Positions 16-13,079 of a stretch of 64,000 nt of DNA are shown in pieces. The notes under the pieces are model-generated. The model saw only the letters and a list, made by a program, of their open reading frames with translations. It was not told the DNA's origin and searched no databases. The position numbers and the translations under genes are program-made. Numbering within the stretch: the first letter of the stretch is position 1; each line of letters starts with the position of its first letter. The DNA is from an uncultured Acidobacteriota bacterium (GTDB taxonomy: Bacteria > Acidobacteriota > Vicinamibacteria > Vicinamibacterales > 2-12-FULL-66-21): assembly GCA_963785755.1 (NCBI GenBank), contig CAWAXG010000002.1:625128-689127 (forward strand), given 5' to 3'.

Positions 16-900
16 GTGAAGGGCTACCACGACATCGTCGGCGACGGGGGATCCAGAATCCTCGAGCAGGTTGTTGAGCAGCGTACCCGCATAACTGACG
101 GGCTCGCCGGGGTGCGCCATCTCGTGGCCGTGGGCTCCGGCAAGGGGGGCGTCGGCAAGAGCACCTTGACGCTGCATCTCGCGGGCGCTCTGCGTGCCCG
201 GGGGCTTCGAATTGCGATCCTGGACGCGGACTTCAACGGCCCCTCACAGGCGCGTATGGCCGGTGTCCAGGGAGCGCTGTTCGTTCCAGGCAGCCACAAA
301 GTCGCGCTCCCGCGGACCACGAACGGGATCGGGGTCTTCTCGATGGGCTCGATGATCCCCGAGTCGGAGGCGCTCGATTTCGAGAGCGCGGCGCGCGGCG
401 AGTCGCATACGTGGCGCGCCACGAGAGAGTTCGCCCTCCTCGGCGAGATCCTCGGGTCGTTCGAATGGGGATCGCTCGATCTGCTGATGTTCGATCTGCC
501 GCCTGGAGCCGAGCGGACCGTTCAGTACGCCGAGTTTCTCGGCCCGAGGACGTCCTTCGTGCTCGTGACGATCCCTTCTGAAGTGGCACGGGGCGTCGTC
601 GCGCGCTCGGTGGCCGCCCTGTCGAAAGGGCCCAATCGCCTGCTGGGTTACGTCGAGAACATGAGCGGCTATTACTGTCGCGACTGCAACGCGATCAAGC
701 CGCTGTTCGCGTCCGACGCCCCATCGCCGCTGGAAATCCCTTGCTTCGGAACCGTTCCCTTCGATCCCGAGCTCGCGCGCCATTGCGACCGCGGAATTCC
801 GTTCACCGAACTGCGCGACAGCCCAGTGGGCCGGTCCTTCGACCAGATCGCGCAACGACTGCTTGACGGCCTCGAATCGTCACCGGAGTCCAGCCGATGA
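16..900 (+). CDS. Mrp/NBP35 (ApbC-like) P-loop iron-sulfur cluster carrier ATPase
   Basis: Walker A GSGKGGVGKST. Mrp signature ENMSGYYCRDCNAIKPLF with a CxxC motif. The frame is open to the window edge, so the true 5' end may lie upstream. ATGA overlap with the next gene. Confidence 0.85.
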   Translation: MKGYHDIVGDGGSRILEQVVEQRTRITDGLAGVRHLVAVGSGKGGVGKSTLTLHLAGALRARGLRIAILDADFNGPSQARMAGVQGALFVPGSHKVALPRTTNGIGVFSMGSMIPESEALDFESAARGESHTWRATREFALLGEILGSFEWGSLDLLMFDLPPGAERTVQYAEFLGPRTSFVLVTIPSEVARGVVARSVAALSKGPNRLLGYVENMSGYYCRDCNAIKPLFASDAPSPLEIPCFGTVPFDPELARHCDRGIPFTELRDSPVGRSFDQIAQRLLDGLESSPESSR

Positions 901-1334
901 AGTTCCTGTGTGTCCCTTGCGACAGCCCGATGAAGCTGCAGACCATCGGCCCGCCCGAGGGTGGCTCGCTCTCCGTCGTCTACTCCTGTCCCGAGTGCGG
1001 CTACGAGATGGCGATGCTGACCAATCCGTACGAGACACAGGTCGTCCAGTCACTCGGCGTGCGGATCGGTCCCGACACGGGGGCAAGCACCTCTGCTACC
1101 AGCTCCGGCTGCCCGTTCACCGCGATGATGCCTGGGATGGAAGGCGCACGGGCGGGAGGCGGTGAGCCAATCTCGGTCCGGTGGACGTCCGCCGCCGAAG
1201 CGAGGCTCGCGAACATTCCCGAGTTCGTGCGCCCGATGGCGCGGACCGGCATCGAGAAATTCGCCCGGGAAAGAGGGGTCCTTGAAGTCGACGAGAAGAT
1301 CCTCGATGAAGCCCGCGACTTCTTCGGCATGTGA
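897..1334 (+). CDS. Zinc-ribbon protein with C-terminal PCP_red (BchB/ChlB C-terminal-like) domain
   Basis: N-terminal CxxC...CxxC (CVPCDSP...CPECGYE). The C-terminal WTSAAEARLANIPEFVRPMARTGIEKFARERG matches the PF08369-type pattern. 4-nt overlaps with both neighbours. Confidence 0.7.
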   Translation: MKFLCVPCDSPMKLQTIGPPEGGSLSVVYSCPECGYEMAMLTNPYETQVVQSLGVRIGPDTGASTSATSSGCPFTAMMPGMEGARAGGGEPISVRWTSAAEARLANIPEFVRPMARTGIEKFARERGVLEVDEKILDEARDFFGM

Positions 1335-2771
1335 GCGGCGCCCTCGGCATGGACACGTTCACCCGCCCCTACGTTATCTCCTGGAACCTCACCTACCGCT
1401 GCAACCTCGCCTGCGAGCACTGCTATCTCGACGCCGGCGGCACGCCTCAGGTCGGCACGGAGAACTTCTCCGACCGGAGCGAGCTCGGCACCGAGGAATG
1501 CTTCAAGGTCATCGACGAAATCGCCGCGTTCGCGCCTGAATGCCTGACGATCCTGACGGGCGGCGAGCCGCTCCTGCGCCGCGACATCCTCGAGATCGTC
1601 CGGCGCGCGTCGGAGCGCGAGCTCTGGGTCGTCGTCGGCACCAACGGGGTGAGCATCACGGAGAACCTGGCGAAGCGCCTCGCGGACGCCGGCGCGCGGG
1701 GCCTCTCGCTCTCGCTCGATGCGCTCGATCCCGATCGTCACGACCGCTTCAGGATGGTGCGGGGCGCCTGGCGGAACACGGTGGAGGGAGCGGAGATCCT
1801 CAATCGGACCGGGCTGCCCTTCATCGTGCAGACGACCGCGGGCTCGCACAATCTCGGCGAGCTCGAGGCGATCGCCGACTTCGCGCACGAACGCCTCGCC
1901 GCCAGGGTCTGGAACCTCTACTTCCTGGTGCCGACGGGCCGCGGGCAGTACGTGTCGGACATCACTCCTGCCCAGTACCGATGAGGTTCTCGCCTCGCTC
2001 TACCGCATCCAGAGGAAGTACGACCGCCGGATGCTCGTGAACGCGAAGTGCGCGCCACACTACATCAAGACTGTTCTGGAGCAGGCGGGGACAGGCAACG
2101 GGGACAGGCAAGAGGGACAGGCAACCGGGACAGGCAACGGGGACAGCCAGCCGGGACAGGCAAGTCCCTCGTGGCCCGGTCTGTCCGCGATCAGGACCTA
2201 CTCCGGAGGGGCTGGCGGGTGCCCGGCGGGGACGCACTACATGGGGATACGGCCGAACGGTGATGTCACCCCGTGCCCCTACCTCCCGGTGTTTGCGGGG
2301 ACCCTTCGCAGCTCGAGCCTCGCGGACCTCTGGACGTCGTCGGAGCTCTTCGCCGGCATTCGCCGCCGAACCTCGCTCGGCGGCCGTTGCGGCGAGTGCG
2401 AGATGAACGGCCACTGTGGGGGCTGCCGCGCCCGCGCCTACGGGATGACCGGCGATCTGATGGCTGAAGACCCGCTCTGCACCCACACCCCCGGCACGTT
2501 CGCCGGGTCTCCCCTTCTTGCCATCCGTGGCCGGACGTCCGTCGCGGGCGCGCAGGGGCCTGCCACGATTCATTACGGCACCGAATCGGCAACGAGCATC
2601 GCCTGGGACGATGACGCCGCCGCGCGCATGAAGAAGATCCCCGCATTCGTCCGGGGCATGGTCGTCAGGGCCGTCGAGGAATCGTGCCGTAAGAACGGCC
2701 TCGACCGCGTGACCGTGGAGGAACTCGAACGAATCCGCGCGCGGATGCCGACGCCGAAGATGTTTGGGTAG
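1331..2771 (+). pseudogene. Radical SAM/SPASM protein with C-terminal PCP_red-like tail; frame disrupted as assembled (may be a sequencing error)
   Basis: N-part (ORF 1331..1984): YRCNLACEHC (CxxxCxxC) and GGEPLL. C-part (ORF 1719..2771, homology from about 1980): GGCPAG, TPCPY and CGECEMNGHCGGCRARA SPASM cysteines, then IPAFVRGMVVRAVEE. The frames rejoin if one C is removed at CAGTAC[C]GATGAG (about 1979). Confidence 0.8.
2088..2165 (+). repeat. 13-nt tandem repeat x6 (GGGACAGGCAASN) inside the rSAM coding region
   Basis: Units start at 2088, 2101, 2114, 2127, 2140 and 2153. The total of 78 nt is in frame and encodes GTGNGDRQEGQATGTGNGDSQPGQAS. Confidence 0.9.
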
Positions 2772-4615: not shown

Positions 4616-5421
4616 CTATCTGAAGGGGTCCGATGCGGCCTCGATCTGCTCCTTGACCTTTTCGTCCATCCACTTCTGGAAGTCCTCGGTGGTCTGGACG
4701 GTGACGAAGCCCCGCATCCGGAAGTGGCCCAGCCCGCAGAGCTGCGCGCAGGCGATCTCGGTACTGGAACTCGGGTTTCCCGAGTCGGGTCCGCATCTCC
4801 TCGGTCGTGACGTTGGCGACGAACCAGATGGGAATCGTCAGGCCGGGGATGGCGTCCTGCTTCACGCGAAGCTCGGGCACGCCGAAGCTGTGGATGACGT
4901 CCTTGCTCCGGAGCCTCACGATGATCGGCTTGTTCACGGGCAGATAGAACTGATTGAGCGTCGTTACGTCGTCCTTCGCGGCAGGATCGGAGCGATCGAT
5001 TCCCAGGGGATTCGACTGGAGGTCGAGCAGCTTGATGTCGGTGCGGCCGAATTTCCCGTCGGGGCCTGGATAGTGGACGTTCCAGGCGAATTGTTCGCCG
5101 GTTACCTGAACGACGAGCGATTCACTCTCCGGGGGAATGCGATCGACCCTCGCGGCCCAGATCGGGATCGCGAATCCGAAGCAGGAGAATCATTTCGACC
5201 ACGGCCACGCCGCCTTCGAGATAGCTCGAGGTGTGCGACTTGACCCCCGCGTAGTTCGCCACCGGATTCCGCGAACGCCGGAAACGGAACAGGGCGTAGA
5301 TGAAGAAGCTTCCCCACCCGACGAACAGGACGAGCATGAACACATGCGTCCAGCCGATCAGGCCGTCGATCTGCCCGCCGTGAGTCGAGGCGAGCGGAGG
5401 GAGTCCGAGCCACTCTGTCAT
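4616..5421 (-). pseudogene. coxB: Cytochrome c oxidase subunit II (CuA, no cytochrome c domain); two frame disruptions as assembled
   Basis: Three consecutive frames. (1) The 5122..5421 ORF carries the TM helices. (2) The middle part carries VTGEQFAWNVHYPG...DVIHSFGVPELRVKQDAIPG. (3) My own translation of the third frame gives EIACAQLCGLGHFRMRGFVTVQ...DPFR, with the stop at 4616-4618. Breaks lie near 5178 and at CAGTAC[C]GAGATC (+ strand 4758-4765). Confidence 0.85.
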
Positions 5422-5738
5422 GATGTTCTAGGCCCCCTTTGGAGCTCCGACCATTCGGCATCGAGGTCGAGGTCGGCGATGCGCTTCGCGCGCCTGCGAA
5501 GATAGAGAAAAAAGCCCACAAACCCGCCCTGCACCGCAAGGGTGATGGCCAGCATCACCAGGACGCCGAGCTTCGCCCCGTCGATCAGCGGGGTCTCTTC
5601 CGCCCCGAAGCACACCGGGCAGGCGAGCACGCGGGCGCCGCCGGCGATCACCACGAACGCGGCGGTAATCAACGCCTGTCGCGCCGAAGCGAAGCGAAGG
5701 CGGGCCTGCCGCGCCGAAGCGAAGCGAAGGCGGGTCAT
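5418..5738 (-). CDS. Small membrane protein with CPVC motif (unknown function), oxidase-operon encoded
   Basis: Start MTRLRFASARQ at 5738, with an ATGA overlap to the upstream gene. Its stop overlaps the coxII ATG. Two predicted TM stretches and ACPVCFG. Confidence 0.55.
   Translation of the reverse strand: MTRLRFASARQARLRFASARQALITAAFVVIAGGARVLACPVCFGAEETPLIDGAKLGVLVMLAITLAVQGGFVGFFLYLRRRAKRIADLDLDAEWSELQRGPRTS
5675..5734 (-). repeat. 30-bp tandem duplication at the 5' end of the CPVC gene
   Basis: cctgtcgcgccgaagcgaagcgaaggcggg / cctgccgcgccgaagcgaagcgaaggcggg differ at one position. The pair encodes RLRFASARQA twice. Confidence 0.9.
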
Positions 5739-6842: not shown

Positions 6843-8606
6843 TTACGCCTCGTGCTGCGGCACGAAGTCCCTGGCCGCGCCGGGAACGCTGTACTCGTAG
6901 GGGCCCCGGTGCGCTTCCGGCGCCACGACGAAATTGCCGTGCGGCGGAGGCGAGGGAGCCGCCCACTCGATCGTCGTGGCCTGCCACGGGTTGTCGCCGG
7001 TCTTCTCCCCCTTCCAGATGCTCCAGAAGAAATTGAAGATGAAGGGAATCTGGAAGACGGCGAGGATCCACGCGCCCCAGGAGGACACGACATTCCACTG
7101 GAGGACCGGCTGCGCAAAGTCGTAGCTCGCGCCACCGTCGAACAGCCGCCGCGAGACGCCGGCCAGCCCCACGAGGAACATCGGCATGAAGATGACGTTC
7201 ATGCAGACGAGCGAGCCGAAAAAGTGAATCTTGCCGAGCGTCTCGTTCATCATCCGCCCGGTTGCCTTCGGAAACCAGTAATAGACTCCCGCGAAGAGGG
7301 CGAAGATCGTCCCCGGCGCCACGACGTAATGGAAGTGGCCGATGACGTAGTAGGTGTCGTGCAGCGGAATGTCCGAGATGTTGAAGGCGAGCGGAAGCCC
7401 CGTGAGCCCGCCGATCCCGAACATCGGGAGAAAACCGAGCGCGAAGAGCATCGGCGTATTGAAGCGGATCGATCCGCCCCAGAGCGAGATGATCAGGGCC
7501 GTGAGGATGACGACCGACGGGATCGAGATGATCATCGTCGTCGTCTGGAAGAATGCCGCCATCGTCGTGCCCATGCCGGTCATGAACATGTGGTGCGCCC
7601 ACACGATGAACGACATGAAGCCGAGGAAGACCAGCGAATAGACCATCGAACGGTAGCCCCACAGGGGCTTCCGCGTGTTGTTCGCGACGATCTCGGCCAC
7701 GATTCCCATCCCCGGAAGAATCAGGACGTAGACCTCCGGGTGCGCCAGGAACCAGAACAGGTGCTGCCAGAGCAGCGGGTTGCCGCCGCCGGCCACCGGG
7801 AGGGGCTGGCCGCTGACGACGAGGCCGCTCGGGAGGAAGAAGCTCGTGCCGGCCAGGCGATCCATGAGCTGCATGACCCCCGCGGCCTCGAGCGGCGGAA
7901 ACGCCAGCAGCAGGAGGAAGGCCGTCACGAGCTGGGCCCATACGAAGAAGGGGAACCGCATGAAGGTGAGACCCTTCGTGCGGAGCTGGATCGTCGTTGT
8001 AATGAAGTTGACCGCTCCCAGCAGCGACGAGGTGATCAACAGGACCATCCCGATGAGCCACCACGTCTGGCCCGTGCCCGCGATGTTGGCAAGGGGCGAG
8101 TAGGAGGTCCACCCGGATTGCGCGGCGCCCCCGGGGACGAGAAAGCTGAACAGCATCGTCACGCCGCCGAGGAAGAAGAACCAGTAGCTCGCCATGTTCA
8201 GCCTCGGGAACGCCATGTCCGGGGCTCCGATCTGGAGCGGGAGCACGAAGTTTCCGAATCCGCCGACGGCTAACGGGACCACCCCGAGGAACACCATGAT
8301 GGTGCCGTGCATCGCCCCGAGCTCGTTGTAGAACTCAGGGAGCATCGACCCGCCCGGCATGCGCGCCTCGCCGAAGAGACTGCCGATCAGCGGCAGCGCG
8401 GCGCCCGGGTAGGCGAGCTGCCAGCGCATGAGCATCATCAGCGAAAAGCCGAAGAGCAGGAACAGCAAGCCGGTGATGGCGTACTGGATACCGATGACCT
8501 TGTGGTCGGTCGAGAAGACGTACTTCCACCAGAAGCCGAGCTCCTCGTGATGTGCTTCGTGCGCGGCGGGCGGCTTCGGTCCCGCGACAGCTGCTGGGTG
8601 GCTCAT
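6843..8606 (-). CDS. ctaD: Cytochrome c oxidase subunit I
   Basis: Start MSHPAAV at 8606. STDHKVIGIQY, WFFGHPEVY-like LAHPEVYVLILP and HHMF motifs. 12-TM heme-copper oxidase core. Confidence 0.95.
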   Translation of the reverse strand: MSHPAAVAGPKPPAAHEAHHEELGFWWKYVFSTDHKVIGIQYAITGLLFLLFGFSLMMLMRWQLAYPGAALPLIGSLFGEARMPGGSMLPEFYNELGAMHGTIMVFLGVVPLAVGGFGNFVLPLQIGAPDMAFPRLNMASYWFFFLGGVTMLFSFLVPGGAAQSGWTSYSPLANIAGTGQTWWLIGMVLLITSSLLGAVNFITTTIQLRTKGLTFMRFPFFVWAQLVTAFLLLLAFPPLEAAGVMQLMDRLAGTSFFLPSGLVVSGQPLPVAGGGNPLLWQHLFWFLAHPEVYVLILPGMGIVAEIVANNTRKPLWGYRSMVYSLVFLGFMSFIVWAHHMFMTGMGTTMAAFFQTTTMIISIPSVVILTALIISLWGGSIRFNTPMLFALGFLPMFGIGGLTGLPLAFNISDIPLHDTYYVIGHFHYVVAPGTIFALFAGVYYWFPKATGRMMNETLGKIHFFGSLVCMNVIFMPMFLVGLAGVSRRLFDGGASYDFAQPVLQWNVVSSWGAWILAVFQIPFIFNFFWSIWKGEKTGDNPWQATTIEWAAPSPPPHGNFVVAPEAHRGPYEYSVPGAARDFVPQHEA

Positions 8607-8625
8607 GCGGCTGTTCTCCGGTTCG

Positions 8626-9370
8626 CTACTTCGCGGCCACGGCGAACTTGAAGTCCTGGGTCTTCTTGTCGTTCGCGCGCAACCGTGACGGAAGCCGTCT
8701 GCGTCCCCAGCTTCTCGTGCCAGGCCGTGATCTCGTAGGTGCCCGGATCGAGGCCCGAGATCGTGAACTTCCCGTCCGCGCTCGTGACCGAGTAGAAAGG
8801 ATGGGTGAAGACGCCGATGTATGCGCTCATCCATGGATGGACGTCACACTTGACATGGAAGATCGCCTCAGGCTTGGCGAACGTCGTGGTCGCCTCCTTG
8901 CGCGTCGCCGGGAACGCCTGGTTGAATGTCGGGTTGACCTTTGGTTGCGTGTGGATATTGTGCATGATGCCGTCGGAGTTGAGGATCCGGTAGGGCTGAC
9001 CGACCATTATCCCCATCACGTGCGGCACATATAGGCAGCCCTTCTGATCGAGAACCACCGGTTCCTTGGGAGCCGGGAAGGTCTTGCCGGCCGGAAGCCC
9101 TTTCGAGACCCAGACCATGATGTTCCCCATGGTCTGGCCGCTGCCGAGCACGAGCATCTCGGCCGGCACGGGTTTCGAGTGCTTCTTGGCGCACGCGGGG
9201 TCGGCGTCCATGGCGAGCGGCCTTGGAGTAGGGACTTTCCCGTCGAAGGTGACGGTTCCGCTGATCGACGAGGCGGCGAATGCAACGCCCGGCCAGCACA
9301 ACACCGCGAACAGCCCGGCCACCTGCCACACCCTGTTGAATGTCCCGCGCACACTCGGCTTCTTGGTCAT
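8626..9370 (-). pseudogene. Secreted cupredoxin (type-1 copper-like) protein with carboxypeptidase-regulatory-like beta domains; last ~20 codons out of frame as assembled
   Basis: Signal peptide MTKKPS...GVAFAASS. Ligand-like pattern MHNIH ... KCDVHPWM (C-x2-H-x2-M). GGAGG lies 9 nt upstream of the ATG at 9370. The natural-looking end NDKKTQDFKFAVAAK* (stop 8626) needs a 1-nt correction near 8672-8680. Confidence 0.75.
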
Positions 9371-9600
9371 CGCAAACCTCGCCTCCATCGTCACCTTGAC
9401 GCTAGCACCCGCGATCATTAAGTGGGGCGACTTTACACCGGGGCTTGCCGTCTGTGCAACCCTAGCACAGCCTTTTGAGTCGACGCTTCGCACTGGGAAT
9501 CGGCCCACGATCCGACTTCCGCCTTCGACAAAGGTTTCGCCTTCGCAATGGTAGGGGGCGAGCGGCCGTAGCCTTCGGCGGAGGCTGGCTGGCGGACAGG

Positions 9601-10815
9601 TCAAACGTTCTCGAACGCCATCGATTCGGCAAGCCTCGGGTCGCGTAATGGAACGAGCGCCTGCCGTCGCATCAGCCAGCCCGCGGCCGCCACGAAGCAC
9701 CCGCCGATCGCAACGAGCGCGGCCAGGTCCAGCGCCGACGGGCTGGGCCCATGGGGATGGAGCGTCGGCATGACCTGCCAGTAGAGATCCAGGAAGTGCA
9801 TCGCGAGGAGCCACGCTCCGCCGATGGCCAGGGTCGTTCCCCTCCGCTTGACGGCACGCCCCATCAGATAGAAGAACGGAACTCCGAAGTGTCCCGCCAT
9901 GAGGAACAGCGAGACCGTCAGCCAGGAGCCTTCCATTCGCGCCTTGTACCAGATCGTCTCCTCCGGGAGGTTCGCGTACCACATGAGGAAGAACTGGGAG
10001 AAGGCGATATAGGCCCAGAACGCCGTGAATGCGAACAGGAGCTTGCCGATATCGTGCAGGTGCTCGTCGCTGATGATCGTGTCCAGCAGCCCGGCCCTGC
10101 GCATCGCCACCACGATGACCGAGAGCAGCGCGATGAACCCCACGAAGGAACCGGCGAAGAAATAGACGCCGAAGATGGTCGAGTACCAGTGCGGCGTGAG
10201 CGACATGATCCAGTCGATCGAGGCGAAGGTCTGGGTCAGCGCGAGGACCATGATTGCGGGCCCGGCGAGGCGTCGCAGACGGGCGGACACGCCGGGATCC
10301 CCCGTCTCGTCCTGACCGCGCGAGCCGCGGTAGTAGAGCAGCGCGATGAAGGACCAGATTCCGAAGAAGAGCGCCGCCCGGATCAGGAAGAACGGCACGT
10401 TGAGGTATGGCGCCTTCCAGCGAAGCAGCGCATCGTGTTCGGCTGCGTCGGCATGGGACCATTCGTAGAGATCGTGCAGCCCGAGGAGCAACGGGAGGAA
10501 GAGGGCCGCCATCACGGGGAGCGTTGCGAAGATCGTCTCCCCGATCCGCCGCACCACGATCCCCCATCCTCCCTGCGCCGCGTACTGGATCAGCACGAAG
10601 AAGAGCGCGCCGAGGGCCAGGCTCAGGAAGAACAGGAACGACACCAGCCACGAGAAGAAGAACTGCTTCGGATTCCCGGCGCCGAGAATCGCGCAGACCA
10701 CCACTCCCAGCAGGGCGCACACGGCGCCGATCATCGGAATGCGGTTCCACGGGTGCCCCGGGGGAATCGTGGCCTGCTCGGGCCGCAGCGCCACGTGATC
10801 GTGTGCGGAGATCAT
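9601..10815 (-). CDS. actF: ACIII ActF-like (NrfD-related) integral membrane subunit
   Basis: Polytopic membrane protein (FFFSWLVSFLFFLSLALGALFFVLIQY..., KAPYLNVPFFLIRAALFF) located after actD. Start chosen at MISAHDH (10815). Confidence 0.7.
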   Translation of the reverse strand: MISAHDHVALRPEQATIPPGHPWNRIPMIGAVCALLGVVVCAILGAGNPKQFFFSWLVSFLFFLSLALGALFFVLIQYAAQGGWGIVVRRIGETIFATLPVMAALFLPLLLGLHDLYEWSHADAAEHDALLRWKAPYLNVPFFLIRAALFFGIWSFIALLYYRGSRGQDETGDPGVSARLRRLAGPAIMVLALTQTFASIDWIMSLTPHWYSTIFGVYFFAGSFVGFIALLSVIVVAMRRAGLLDTIISDEHLHDIGKLLFAFTAFWAYIAFSQFFLMWYANLPEETIWYKARMEGSWLTVSLFLMAGHFGVPFFYLMGRAVKRRGTTLAIGGAWLLAMHFLDLYWQVMPTLHPHGPSPSALDLAALVAIGGCFVAAAGWLMRRQALVPLRDPRLAESMAFENV

Positions 10816-10941
10816 TCTTCCCCGGGGGACTTCGTCCCCGGACCCCCTTACACGCGCGCTCGCGGGGGCCCTCACGCCCCGCTCCGCGCGCGTGGCTCGC
10901 TCGCTGCGCTCACTCGCTGTCGAGAGTGGTTATTCATGATT

Positions 10942-11565
10942 TCAGGACTCCACGAGCTCGACGGTGCGGGCGCCCAGGGATTCAAGCAGCTTGCCGGTGG
11001 CCGACGGATCGAACCGGGGATCCCAGGATTCGATCGAAATGAAGAAGGCGTCGTCGGTCACACGCTCGAAGACCTTGGATCGGAAGAGCGGATGGTAGTG
11101 CATGGGGAGCCGGTTGAGGCCGAACATGCCGAAGACGGCGCCGAGCGCGCCGAAAAGGACGGCGAGCTCGAAGGTAATCGGAATGAAGGCGGGCCAGGAG
11201 AAAAACGGTTTGCCGCTGATCACGAGGGGATAGGCGGTGGTGTGGACCCACCACTGCAGGACGAACCCGAGTGCGGCCCCCATCAGTCCCATGCCGAGGA
11301 CGATCCAGGGAAGCGGGGATCGCCGGAGCCCCATCGCTTTCTCGAGGCCGTGGACAGGGAACGGGCTGTGGGCATCCCACTTGGTGAAGCCCGCGTCACG
11401 CACCCGCTCGCACGCGTGATACAGGTCCGCAGGCGTCGCGAATTCGGCGAGGAGTCCGTAATAGGGCCCCTTCGGGAGCTGCGGGGAGAGCAACGGCATT
11501 GTCCTGAGCGAGCGACCTGTCCGCCATAGCGCGAAGCGCGAAGGCGGAAGCGAGTCGAAGGGCAT
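10942..11565 (-). CDS. actD: ACIII ActD-like protein (DUF3341)
   Basis: YGLLAEFATPADLYHACERVRDAGFTKWDAHSPFPVHGL ... FFISIESWDPRFD. The ATG at 11565 overlaps the actC stop (ATGA). An alternative start is 66 nt downstream. Confidence 0.8.
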   Translation of the reverse strand: MPFDSLPPSRFALWRTGRSLRTMPLLSPQLPKGPYYGLLAEFATPADLYHACERVRDAGFTKWDAHSPFPVHGLEKAMGLRRSPLPWIVLGMGLMGAALGFVLQWWVHTTAYPLVISGKPFFSWPAFIPITFELAVLFGALGAVFGMFGLNRLPMHYHPLFRSKVFERVTDDAFFISIESWDPRFDPSATGKLLESLGARTVELVES

Positions 11566-13079
11566 CAGGAGGCTCCTTCGGGAGCGGGCTCCGACGCCCC
11601 ACGCCCCGCGGCGGTCCGGTGGTCCTTGATTACGCGTTCGGTGCCGGGCTGCCAATGCGGATCGGCCTGCGGCAGCACGGTCTTGACCTCGGCGGTTGCC
11701 ACCATCGGAAGAAAGCGCACGAACAGGCAGAACATCGTGAAGAAGAGCCCGAAGCTTCCAAGCAGGCACGCCACGTCCCAGAACGTGGGAGTGAAGTAGC
11801 TCCAGGCCGAGGGCAGGAAGTCACGGTGCAGCGACGTCACGATAATCACGAACCGCTCGAACCACATGCCGATGTTGATCACGATCGACACTACGAACAG
11901 GATCGGGATGCTCGTGCGCGCCTTCTTGGACCAGAAAATCTGGGGGCTGATCACGTTGCAGGTGACCATGATCCAGTAGGCCCAGGCGTACGGTCCCAGG
12001 GCGCGGTTCATGAACGTGAAGTACTGGTACGGGTTCCCGCTGTACCAGGCGGTGAAGAACTCCGTGGCATAGGCGTAGCCCACCATCGATCCGGTCACCA
12101 ACATGATCTTCGCCATGTAGTCGAAGTGCCGGAGCGTGATGATGTGCTCGAGGCCGAACGCCTTGCGGCAGATCACCATGAGCGTCAGCACCATGGCGAA
12201 CCCGGAAAAGATCGCGCCCGCGACGAAGTACGGCGGGAAGACCGTCGTATGCCATCCGGGGAGGAGGGAGACCGCGAAATCCATCGAGACGATCGAATGA
12301 ACCGAGAGGACCAGCGGCGTCGCGAGGGCCGCGAGAATGAGATACGCGGATTCGTAGTGATGCCATTGCCGCACGGAGCCCCGCCATCCGAGAGCGAAGA
12401 GACCGTAGACGAACTTCCTCGTCGGAGTCTTCGCCCGATCGCGCATCGTCGCCAGGTCCGGGATCAGGCCGATGTACCAGAACAGGACCGAGACGGTTCC
12501 GTAGATGCTGACCGCGAAGACGTCCCAGAGAAGAGGGCTCCTGAAGTTGGGCCACATGCCCATCTGGTTCGGGAGCGGGAACATCCAGTAGGCGACCCAG
12601 ACGCGTCCCACGTGGATCCCGGGAAACGTCAGGGCACACATGACTGCGAAGATGGTCATGGCCTCGGCGGAGCGATTGATCGACGTGCGCCATTTCTGGC
12701 GGAAGAGGAACAGGATCGCTGAGATGAGCGTGCCGGCGTGCCCGATCCCGACCCAGAACACGAAATTCGTGATGTCCCACGCCCATCCGACGGGGACGTT
12801 GAGGCCCCAGATGCCGATCCCCTCCCAGAACAGCCATGAGACCGCGACGCCGAGCAGGCCGAGGAGGGCGACCGATGGGATGAAGAAGATCCACCAGCCG
12901 ATCGGTGTCGGCCGTTCGATCGGCTCCGCGACGACCTCGGTGATTGAGTGAAAATCCGGCGAGCGCAGGATGAGCGTCGGCCGGCCCGCGACAGGGTTGT
13001 CTAGCAGTTCTGCTTCCGTCTGGGCCAAGCCCGCTCCCGCGTTGAGTTTTGAAAAGTGGCCGTTTGTACCATCGCGCAT
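11565..13079 (-). CDS. actC: ACIII ActC-like quinol-interacting NrfD/PsrC-family membrane subunit
   Basis: 504 aa. [43 protein letters not shown] is typical of ActC/NrfD. Confidence 0.85.

Follow-up and report, generated by a model that had tools for sequence, protein, structure and literature searches.

A PCP_red-tailed radical SAM enzyme related to AhbD and its operon partners in Vicinamibacteria

The operon and its three genes

The window analyzed here is a stretch of 64,000 nucleotides (nt) from an uncultured Acidobacteriota bacterium of the class Vicinamibacteria (contig CAWAXG010000002.1, positions 625,128 to 689,127), and it opens with three genes lying head to tail on the + strand. 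The first encodes an Mrp/NBP35/ApbC-type P-loop ATPase recognized by PF10609 (1..900, open reading frame (ORF) 16..900), whose 5' end is cut by the window edge unless translation starts at GTG 16. The second encodes a protein of 145 amino acids (aa) in which a zinc ribbon precedes a PCP_red domain (897..1334), as indicated by the Pfam PCP_red match, alignments and an AlphaFold 2 (AF2) model. The third, which falls into two parts in this assembly (1331..1984 and 1980..2771, both + strand), encodes a member of the AhbD clade, a predicted three-cluster radical S-adenosylmethionine (SAM)/SPASM enzyme that ends in a PCP_red domain. This enzyme, its partners and their possible part in the last step of heme synthesis are the subject of the present analysis.

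Conservation in Vicinamibacteria was counted in the 80 best loci from GTDB species representatives. Nearly all of them belong to the Acidobacteriota class Vicinamibacteria, one being a metagenome-assembled genome (MAG) of Luteitalea, and a few are MAGs with other phylum labels. Upstream sequence was long enough for the count in 75 Vicinamibacteria loci, and in 74 of these the Mrp, Zn-ribbon-PCP_red and radical SAM genes follow one another in that order; the trio delineated in a preliminary description of the locus, made from the DNA letters alone, is thus conserved together. That description also reported a 4-nt overlap at each of the two junctions, and both overlaps are indeed present in the window (ATGA at 897-900, GTGA at 1331-1334). 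The first, joining the stop of Mrp to the start of the Zn-ribbon gene, recurs in 56 of the 74 loci, which argues for the coupled, equimolar production of these two proteins. The second depends on a GTG start at 1331 and is not conserved, the usual junction between the Zn-ribbon and radical SAM genes being a short spacer (median 17 nt). Of the two candidate starts of the radical SAM gene, GTG 1331 and ATG 1349 (MDTFTRPYV), the latter agrees better with the N-termini of homologs.

The Mrp start called on the sister contig L001 lies 15 nt before window base 1; ahead of it come a gap of ~210 nt and then a divergent AMP-binding gene, so that Mrp is the first gene of the operon. At the other end, the radical SAM gene stops at 2769-2771, directly against the stop codon of a convergent sulfatase gene (2772-2774), with no room for a terminator between them. 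With Mrp as first gene upstream and a convergent gene directly downstream, the trio therefore forms a self-contained three-gene operon at this locus.

The third gene had been read as one continuous radical SAM-SPASM-PCP_red gene. In the window it is not a single ORF: frame 2, which carries the radical SAM domain (Pfam Radical_SAM, 8e-25), runs over 1331..1984 and ends at TGA 1982-1984, and the SPASM (Pfam, 7e-9) and PCP_red (4.8e-14) domains lie in frame 3 over 1980..2771. Alignment of the DNA of sister contigs traces the split to a one-base insertion at 1978..1979, an extra C in CAGTACCGATGA that is also present in contig L002, from a different assembly. Most likely, the frameshift is an artefact of long-read assembly or base calling, because the 97%-identical short-read contig L089 is intact and reads CAGTA-CGATGA, because L001 lacks that C and has an extra T 30 nt upstream instead (about 11050-11085 of L001), and because other genes are split too. 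In the window, COX2 (4619-5454, - strand) is spread over frames -2, -3 and -1, with the CuA-site region out of frame in the called ORFs, which points to further indels in the assembly; L001 and L002 contain further split genes. Both insertions, the C of the window and L002 and the T of L001, stand directly after CAGTA and before CG, and a systematic base-calling error at a modified-base motif may lie behind them. The gene is uninterrupted across ITPAQYDEVLASLYRIQRKY in 22 homologs (81-88% identity), and 80 of 80 species-representative loci join the two halves here without a break or a change of frame.

It is quite unlikely that the operon is decaying and that the radical SAM gene is a true pseudogene in this strain. 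The extra C common to two different assemblies would fit such a decay, but the indel of L001 differs and lies 30 nt away in the same sequence context, the short-read contig is intact, COX2 and other genes are similarly broken, and both halves of the gene are 97% identical to an intact homolog with no further defects. Programmed frameshifting at 1978-1984 was considered as well and rejected, since there is no slippery re-pairing at UAC-CGA-UGA, the site of the indel differs between sister assemblies, and L089 is intact.

The ATPase scores 172.7 bits on PF10609 (ORF 16..900; cutoff 27.1). It carries a deviant Walker A motif with the signature lysine (GSGKGGVGKST, 133-165), the motif DLPPGAERT (493-519) and a CxxC motif (CRDC, 676-687), all of which are invariant among 46 orthologs, and it aligns to Cfd1 (6g2g), with its cluster-binding CxxC matching the Cfd1 cluster site. 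The initial call of an Fe-S carrier ATPase therefore stands at the level of the family: by domain, Walker A and CxxC, the protein is predicted to belong to the Mrp/NBP35/ApbC carriers, and it remains below the equivalog cutoffs of ApbC (NF008669, 105 bits against 348) and MrpORP (NF041136, 151 against 450). Like NBP35, ApbC and Cfd1, it combines the GKGGVGKS signature, a CxxC at the position of the Cfd1 cluster site and a PF10609 score far above cutoff. Unlike them, it has neither a DUF59 nor an N-terminal ferredoxin-like domain, its switch II reads PPGAERT where known carriers have PPGTGD, and it resides in a dedicated operon, translationally coupled to a PCP_red adaptor.

The small middle protein is ~80% conserved and has two folded domains, its AF2 model consisting of a ribbon, disordered residues 46-90 and three helices. 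The N-terminal Cys4 ribbon (909-998; CxxC...CxxC, with cysteines at 909, 918, 987 and 996 that are nearly invariant in alignments) has no Pfam or NCBIfam match, and its matches in the PDB are weak and of the generic zinc-ribbon kind. It is followed by a variable linker, predicted to be disordered, that contains an invariant Cys-Pro-Phe motif (1110-1118), so that the protein is more than the bare zinc ribbon it was first described as; we take this motif to resemble the heme-regulatory CP motif. The C-terminal PCP_red three-helix domain (1182-1316; Pfam, 3.3e-16) is the sole database match of the protein, and Foldseek superposes it on the nuclear magnetic resonance structure of BchB (2kru) with a template-modelling (TM) score of 0.81 and a root-mean-square deviation of 1.0 Å over 54 residues.

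In subunit B of dark-operative protochlorophyllide oxidoreductase (DPOR), the three-helix PCP_red domain covers the tetrapyrrole pocket. Its presence on both the second and the third protein of the trio, a central point of the preliminary description, is upheld by scores of 59.5 bits for the small protein and 52.5 bits for the enzyme (PF08369, cutoff 32.5) and by the signature W-x3-A-x3-[LM]-x2-IP-x-FVR in both copies. The three-helix fold and the W-x3-A-x3-L-x2-IP-x-FVR signature are those of the BchB/ChlB C-terminus (PF08369; 2kru, 2xdq) and of the stand-alone protein asr4154 (2l09). Unlike in DPOR, PCP_red occurs here without the nitrogenase-like catalytic domain and is instead fused with a radical SAM enzyme, a Cys4 ribbon or tandem Usp domains, and its hosts, unlike those of BchB/ChlB, are organisms that do not produce chlorophyll.

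The enzyme has the CX3CX2C radical SAM motif in the form CNLACEHC (1400-1423), which had been picked out from the letters and is invariant in homolog alignments. Its eight SPASM cysteines (2049, 2220, 2274, 2388, 2397, 2415, 2424 and 2478), all invariant across phyla in the alignment, are spaced in the window as CX56CX17CX37CX2CX5CX2CX17C, and the PCP_red domain occupies 2604-2768. An AlphaFold model (predicted TM score 0.79) adopts a SPASM-type fold, with SuiB, PqqE and anSME as best matches in the PDB, which contains no structure of AhbD. The radical SAM barrel is separated from the SPASM domain by an insert (2088-2174) that is hypervariable and of low complexity, with GGGACAGGCAA-like tandem units (GTGNGDRQEGQATGTGNGDSQPGQA). 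In relatives, this insert ranges from a few to ~75 residues, and stretches such as FDRAQGKPS and RLRQGYGGQAE look like in-frame insertions of repeat elements.

Family placement of the radical SAM enzyme

Scoring against NCBIfam was done on intact homologs, the two halves of the window enzyme reaching 162 and 108 bits by themselves on the AhbD model. That model (TIGR04545) was the best-scoring one, with up to 288 bits, and its alignment covers the whole model (positions 1-339 of 339). Next came NirJ2, the old name of AhbD (274 bits, cutoff 500), and TIGR04053 (263 bits, cutoff 395); the same three models are the top NCBIfam matches of the N-terminal half of the window enzyme. The NirJ/AhbC models TIGR04051, TIGR04054 and TIGR04546 gave 154, 140 and 138 bits against cutoffs of 515-650 (NirJ, 154 against 515; AhbC, 138 against 650), all under the AhbD-type models, and models of peptide maturases reached at most ~135 bits, with various cutoffs. 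These profiles bear out the earlier impression that the enzyme is closer to NirJ/AhbD-type tetrapyrrole enzymes than to peptide maturases. No curated NCBIfam cutoff was reached by the enzyme, and our literature searches turned up no pathway of this composition, as had been suspected: we found no description of PCP_red-tailed radical SAM enzymes, of the Usp-PCP_red partner introduced below or of the trio, and nothing specific to the PCP_red-tailed clade in the literature on AhbD in Nitrospira, anammox bacteria and Acidobacteria.

The arrangement of SPASM cysteines agrees with the placement near AhbD. For AhbD, Fix et al. give the spacing CX20-33CX17CX36-37CX2CX5CX2CX17-35C (PMC10452713), which the window enzyme follows in all but the first spacer, longer here owing to the variable insert. 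At 40-50% identity, the next relatives (50%-identity representatives) are radical SAM-SPASM proteins with one to four PCP_red repeats. Tail-less relatives at 33-40% identity score 346-497 bits on the AhbD model, and 3 of 10 exceed the cutoff of TIGR04053. By these comparisons, the enzyme is part of a distinct PCP_red-tailed sister clade of AhbD and not an equivalog-level member of that family.

AhbD (TIGR04545, TIGR04055) is the heme b synthase that turns coproheme into heme b by a radical SAM oxidative decarboxylation. The likeness to it extends over the CX3CX2C motif, the eight-cysteine SPASM spacing and the end-to-end alignment to the hidden Markov model. A genomic tie to a heme-pathway gene is seen for relatives in other phyla but not in the Vicinamibacteria loci, and AhbD is also present in organisms that use the coproporphyrin pathway. 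The enzyme differs from AhbD in its hypervariable pre-SPASM insert, in its score (288 against 500 bits), in its conserved Usp-PCP_red partners and in having no ahbA/B/C nearby. Members of the clade bear one to three C-terminal PCP_red domains in the analyzed loci and up to four in database representatives, and are hosted by Acidobacteriota, Nitrospirota, Nitrospinota, anammox Planctomycetota and Betaproteobacteria, whereas AhbD is found in sulfate reducers and archaea. TIGR04053, an uncharacterised AhbD-like family, is the third-best model and aligns over its full length, yet the enzyme does not attain its cutoff (263 against 395 bits), and the members of that family have no PCP_red tail. The clade is large, with 6,481 homologs at E<=1e-20 among 8,000 scored in soil metagenomes, and automated annotation names many of its members 'AdoMet-dependent heme synthase'.

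Gene neighborhoods within and beyond Vicinamibacteria

A profile built from distant members of the clade finds homologs in Candidatus Loosdrechtia (anammox), Nitrospinota, Nitrospirota, Gallionella, Sulfuricellaceae, Nitrosomonadales and Thiothrix. Outside Vicinamibacteria, 85 loci were examined, 5 on contigs of database members (a sixth place being represented by gene calls only) and 80 from a metagenome scan, and adjacency was counted in the 61 loci with room for a neighboring gene. Directly upstream of the enzyme, 50 of these 61 loci have a gene for a Usp-PCP_red protein that is 42-49% identical to the Usp-PCP_red protein of Vicinamibacteria; directly downstream, a HemY-family gene is found in 30 of the 61, and such neighbors score 234 and 304 bits on TIGR00562 (cutoff 98). 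Mrp occurs in none of the 85 loci, a small Cys4-PCP_red protein was searched for beside these relatives and none was found, and the loci examined contain no ahbA/B/C, nirS or other modification genes. The conserved unit is a two-gene core of Usp-PCP_red and radical SAM-PCP_red, often adjoining HemY and heme-rich respiratory genes, and Mrp and the Zn-ribbon-PCP_red protein are lineage-specific additions of Vicinamibacteria. The preliminary description, which included neither this wider core nor the lineage-specific nature of the two added genes nor the frameshift, had taken the nearby heme-copper oxidase operon as a hint of a role in tetrapyrrole or Fe-S cofactor maturation. The recurrence of HemY downstream of the enzyme in other phyla, with heme-rich respiratory genes alongside, gives substance to that hint.

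Two types of neighborhood recur in these phyla. In the first, c-type and EB_dh cytochromes accompany a cytochrome bd-like oxidase. In the second, a UbiE/MenG-like methyltransferase and a B12-binding radical SAM protein are encoded before the pair, and a 170-aa DUF4149/CopD-like membrane protein after it; these loci (L127, L130-L133, L138-L142, L148, L153-L155, L159 and L166) come from one lineage. The Usp-PCP_red protein of the second type also has a rubredoxin-like domain between its PCP_red copies (Pfam RUBY_RBDX, called in one protein), and a CxxC-x13-CxxC knuckle of the Vicinamibacteria Usp-PCP_red protein sits where RUBY_RBDX does. Homology between the rubredoxin-like knuckle of the Usp-PCP_red proteins and the ribbon of the small protein was considered and rejected, as their sequence similarity is not significant and the arrangement is analogous only. 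On the contig of P0392 (genes 7993-11765), genes for a bd-like oxidase and a Usp-PCP_red protein precede that of an 802-aa relative with a second radical SAM region match and a faint, unconfirmed match to the tetrapyrrole methylase family PF00590.

In many Vicinamibacteria loci, the trio closes a longer + strand run that encodes, in order, a cytochrome c, a cytochrome c with an EB_dh heme domain, a Usp-PCP_red protein, a GNAT acetyltransferase, sometimes a META-domain protein, and the trio itself. This run converges on a cox operon and alternative complex III (ACIII). The Usp-PCP_red proteins encoded there are ~650-680 aa long and comprise two tandem Usp pairs and two PCP_red domains besides the knuckle, and the conserved GNAT gene comes next (e.g., L070 3142-6201). 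An ortholog lies within ~8 kb in at least 33 Vicinamibacteria loci; on L001, the Usp-PCP_red and GNAT genes (1-2247) are located ~8 kb upstream, outside the window, whereas in most other Vicinamibacteria loci the two directly adjoin the trio on its upstream side.

A candidate last step of heme synthesis and its alternatives

We see an even chance that the enzyme, to judge by its sequence, is an oxygen-independent coproheme decarboxylase finishing the coproporphyrin-dependent heme pathway, and we are just as evenly divided on whether the operon is the form, specific to Vicinamibacteria, of a heme-synthase module that is widespread and uncharacterised. An AhbD-type activity is suggested because the AhbD model is the best one and aligns end to end, because the cysteine spacing is kept, and because of the adjacency to HemY and the SPASM fold. 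AhbD is known from coproporphyrin-pathway organisms without other Ahb enzymes (PMC13564367; PMC10114771), and in a phylogeny of CgoX and PgoX the HemY proteins of Nitrospirota and Acidobacteriota fall among the coproporphyrinogen oxidases, in the CgoX clade (PMC10740692).

Under this proposal, the enzyme would reductively cleave SAM, as AhbD does, and the resulting 5'-deoxyadenosyl radical would attack the ring A and ring B propionates of coproheme by hydrogen abstraction. Each propionate would be decarboxylated to a vinyl group, giving heme b, and the leftover electron would exit via the auxiliary clusters; AhbD has been proposed to need an external electron acceptor reached via an auxiliary cluster (PMC10452713). 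The last step of heme synthesis could then proceed without oxygen or peroxide in these diderm phyla, and supply heme to the neighboring respiratory complexes. More speculatively, PCP_red might be a shared docking or tetrapyrrole-lid module by which the enzyme recruits its accessory proteins. The small protein might use its Cys4 and Cys-Pro-Phe regions to accept the electron in a rubredoxin-like manner or to hold heme or coproheme, and it might also serve as targeting adaptor for Mrp, which might load the enzyme's three [4Fe-4S] clusters.

Such a role would matter in several respects. The oxygen- and peroxide-free end of heme synthesis in coproporphyrin-pathway diderms is loosely ascribed to an 'AhbD-like enzyme'. 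The clade described here, which is very abundant and counts nitrite oxidisers, an anammox bacterium and relatives of iron oxidisers among its hosts, offers a concrete candidate. Its conserved partners may supply the electron acceptor and the carrier of product or substrate still missing in AhbD research, and the clade could also supply a chaperone partner for AhbD-type chemistry. PCP_red, so far known only from chlorophyll biosynthesis, would gain a second tetrapyrrole context, and the trio would be one of few examples in which an Fe-S carrier ATPase serves a single radical SAM client.

Several observations weigh against a coproheme decarboxylase. The intact homologs score 288, 288 and 281 bits on TIGR04545 against a cutoff of 500, and since no curated cutoff is met, the clade is a separate one whose substrate could differ. 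The 20 large ORFs scanned in the 64-kb window, which include ACIII (NrfD-like), ABC/MacB transporters, ClpB and IMPDH, contain no heme-pathway gene, and a tblastn search with HemY gave no credible match in the window or in the Vicinamibacteria loci. At the anammox locus, the enzyme stands alone, without a partner gene. The enzyme also occurs in Betaproteobacteria of the Gallionella type, which are expected to use the protoporphyrin pathway. The ribbon of the small protein is compatible in sequence with either Zn or Fe, and the roles given above to PCP_red, Usp, the ribbon and Mrp are speculative and drawn from domain logic. Finally, published surveys report ChdC/HemQ in Acidobacteria, so that the enzyme may be redundant there or do something else.

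Two alternatives carry some, if clearly lesser, weight. In the first, which we put forward as a tentative extension, PCP_red would be a general tetrapyrrole-handling and docking domain around which a multi-protein heme synthase is built from the AhbD-like enzyme, a nucleotide-sensing Usp-PCP_red-rubredoxin protein and, in Vicinamibacteria, the Mrp loader and the Cys4/Cys-Pro adaptor; the assembly would channel heme to respiratory complexes or make an undescribed heme derivative. If this were so, the clade, whose members number in the thousands among soil and nitrogen-cycle bacteria, would constitute a distinct enzyme system and not a plain AhbD isozyme. In the second, of comparably low probability, the enzyme would make or modify a different tetrapyrrole, be it a special heme for the bd-like oxidase, the EB_dh cytochromes or cox, or the product of a NirJ/AhbC-type side-chain removal, with the PCP_red proteins as substrate carriers. 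Scores below every equivalog cutoff, a clade of its own with PCP_red tails that canonical AhbD does not have, unusual heme proteins consistently adjacent across phyla, and an occurrence in Betaproteobacteria, which are not expected to need a coproheme decarboxylase, are what such a substrate would lead one to find. Yet the AhbD model remains the best one from end to end, the AhbD cysteine spacing is kept, the adjacency to HemY fits an ordinary heme b route, and none of ahbA/B/C, nirS or other modification genes appears in the loci examined.

A doubtful third alternative concerns Mrp, which would serve as an ATP-driven electron donor akin to BchL or NifH, docking on its PCP_red partners in a DPOR-like reductive system. 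Mrp belongs to the same SIMIBI class of ATPases as BchL and NifH, and it retains the deviant Walker A together with a CxxC through which a dimer could hold a bridging [4Fe-4S] cluster. Elsewhere, PCP_red is known from subunit B of DPOR, and the translational coupling of Mrp to the PCP_red adaptor is conserved. Against this stands the absence of Mrp from all 85 loci outside Vicinamibacteria, where PCP_red is nevertheless present on both core proteins; because the core keeps PCP_red where Mrp is absent, PCP_red cannot primarily be a domain for docking Mrp. Moreover, the best sequence matches of Mrp are the cluster carriers Cfd1, ApbC and MrpORP, and no BchN/BchB-like catalytic component is present. 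Least credible is a SPASM maturase of ribosomally synthesized and post-translationally modified peptides that would act on the small protein or use it for recognition. In its favor, SPASM enzymes are mostly peptide maturases, SuiB, PqqE and SkfB are the closest solved folds, and the small protein is encoded just upstream. Against it, peptide-maturase models score far below tetrapyrrole models, the small protein is, with its conservation and two folded domains, unlike a precursor peptide and is absent from relatives outside Vicinamibacteria, and neither a protease nor an exporter nor a PqqD-like recognition element turned up.

A minor observation concerns the downstream boundary of the operon. 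The window and L001 are 99.5% identical across the first 2.77 kb and only ~94% identical past that point, which suggests strain mosaicism or recombination at the operon boundary.

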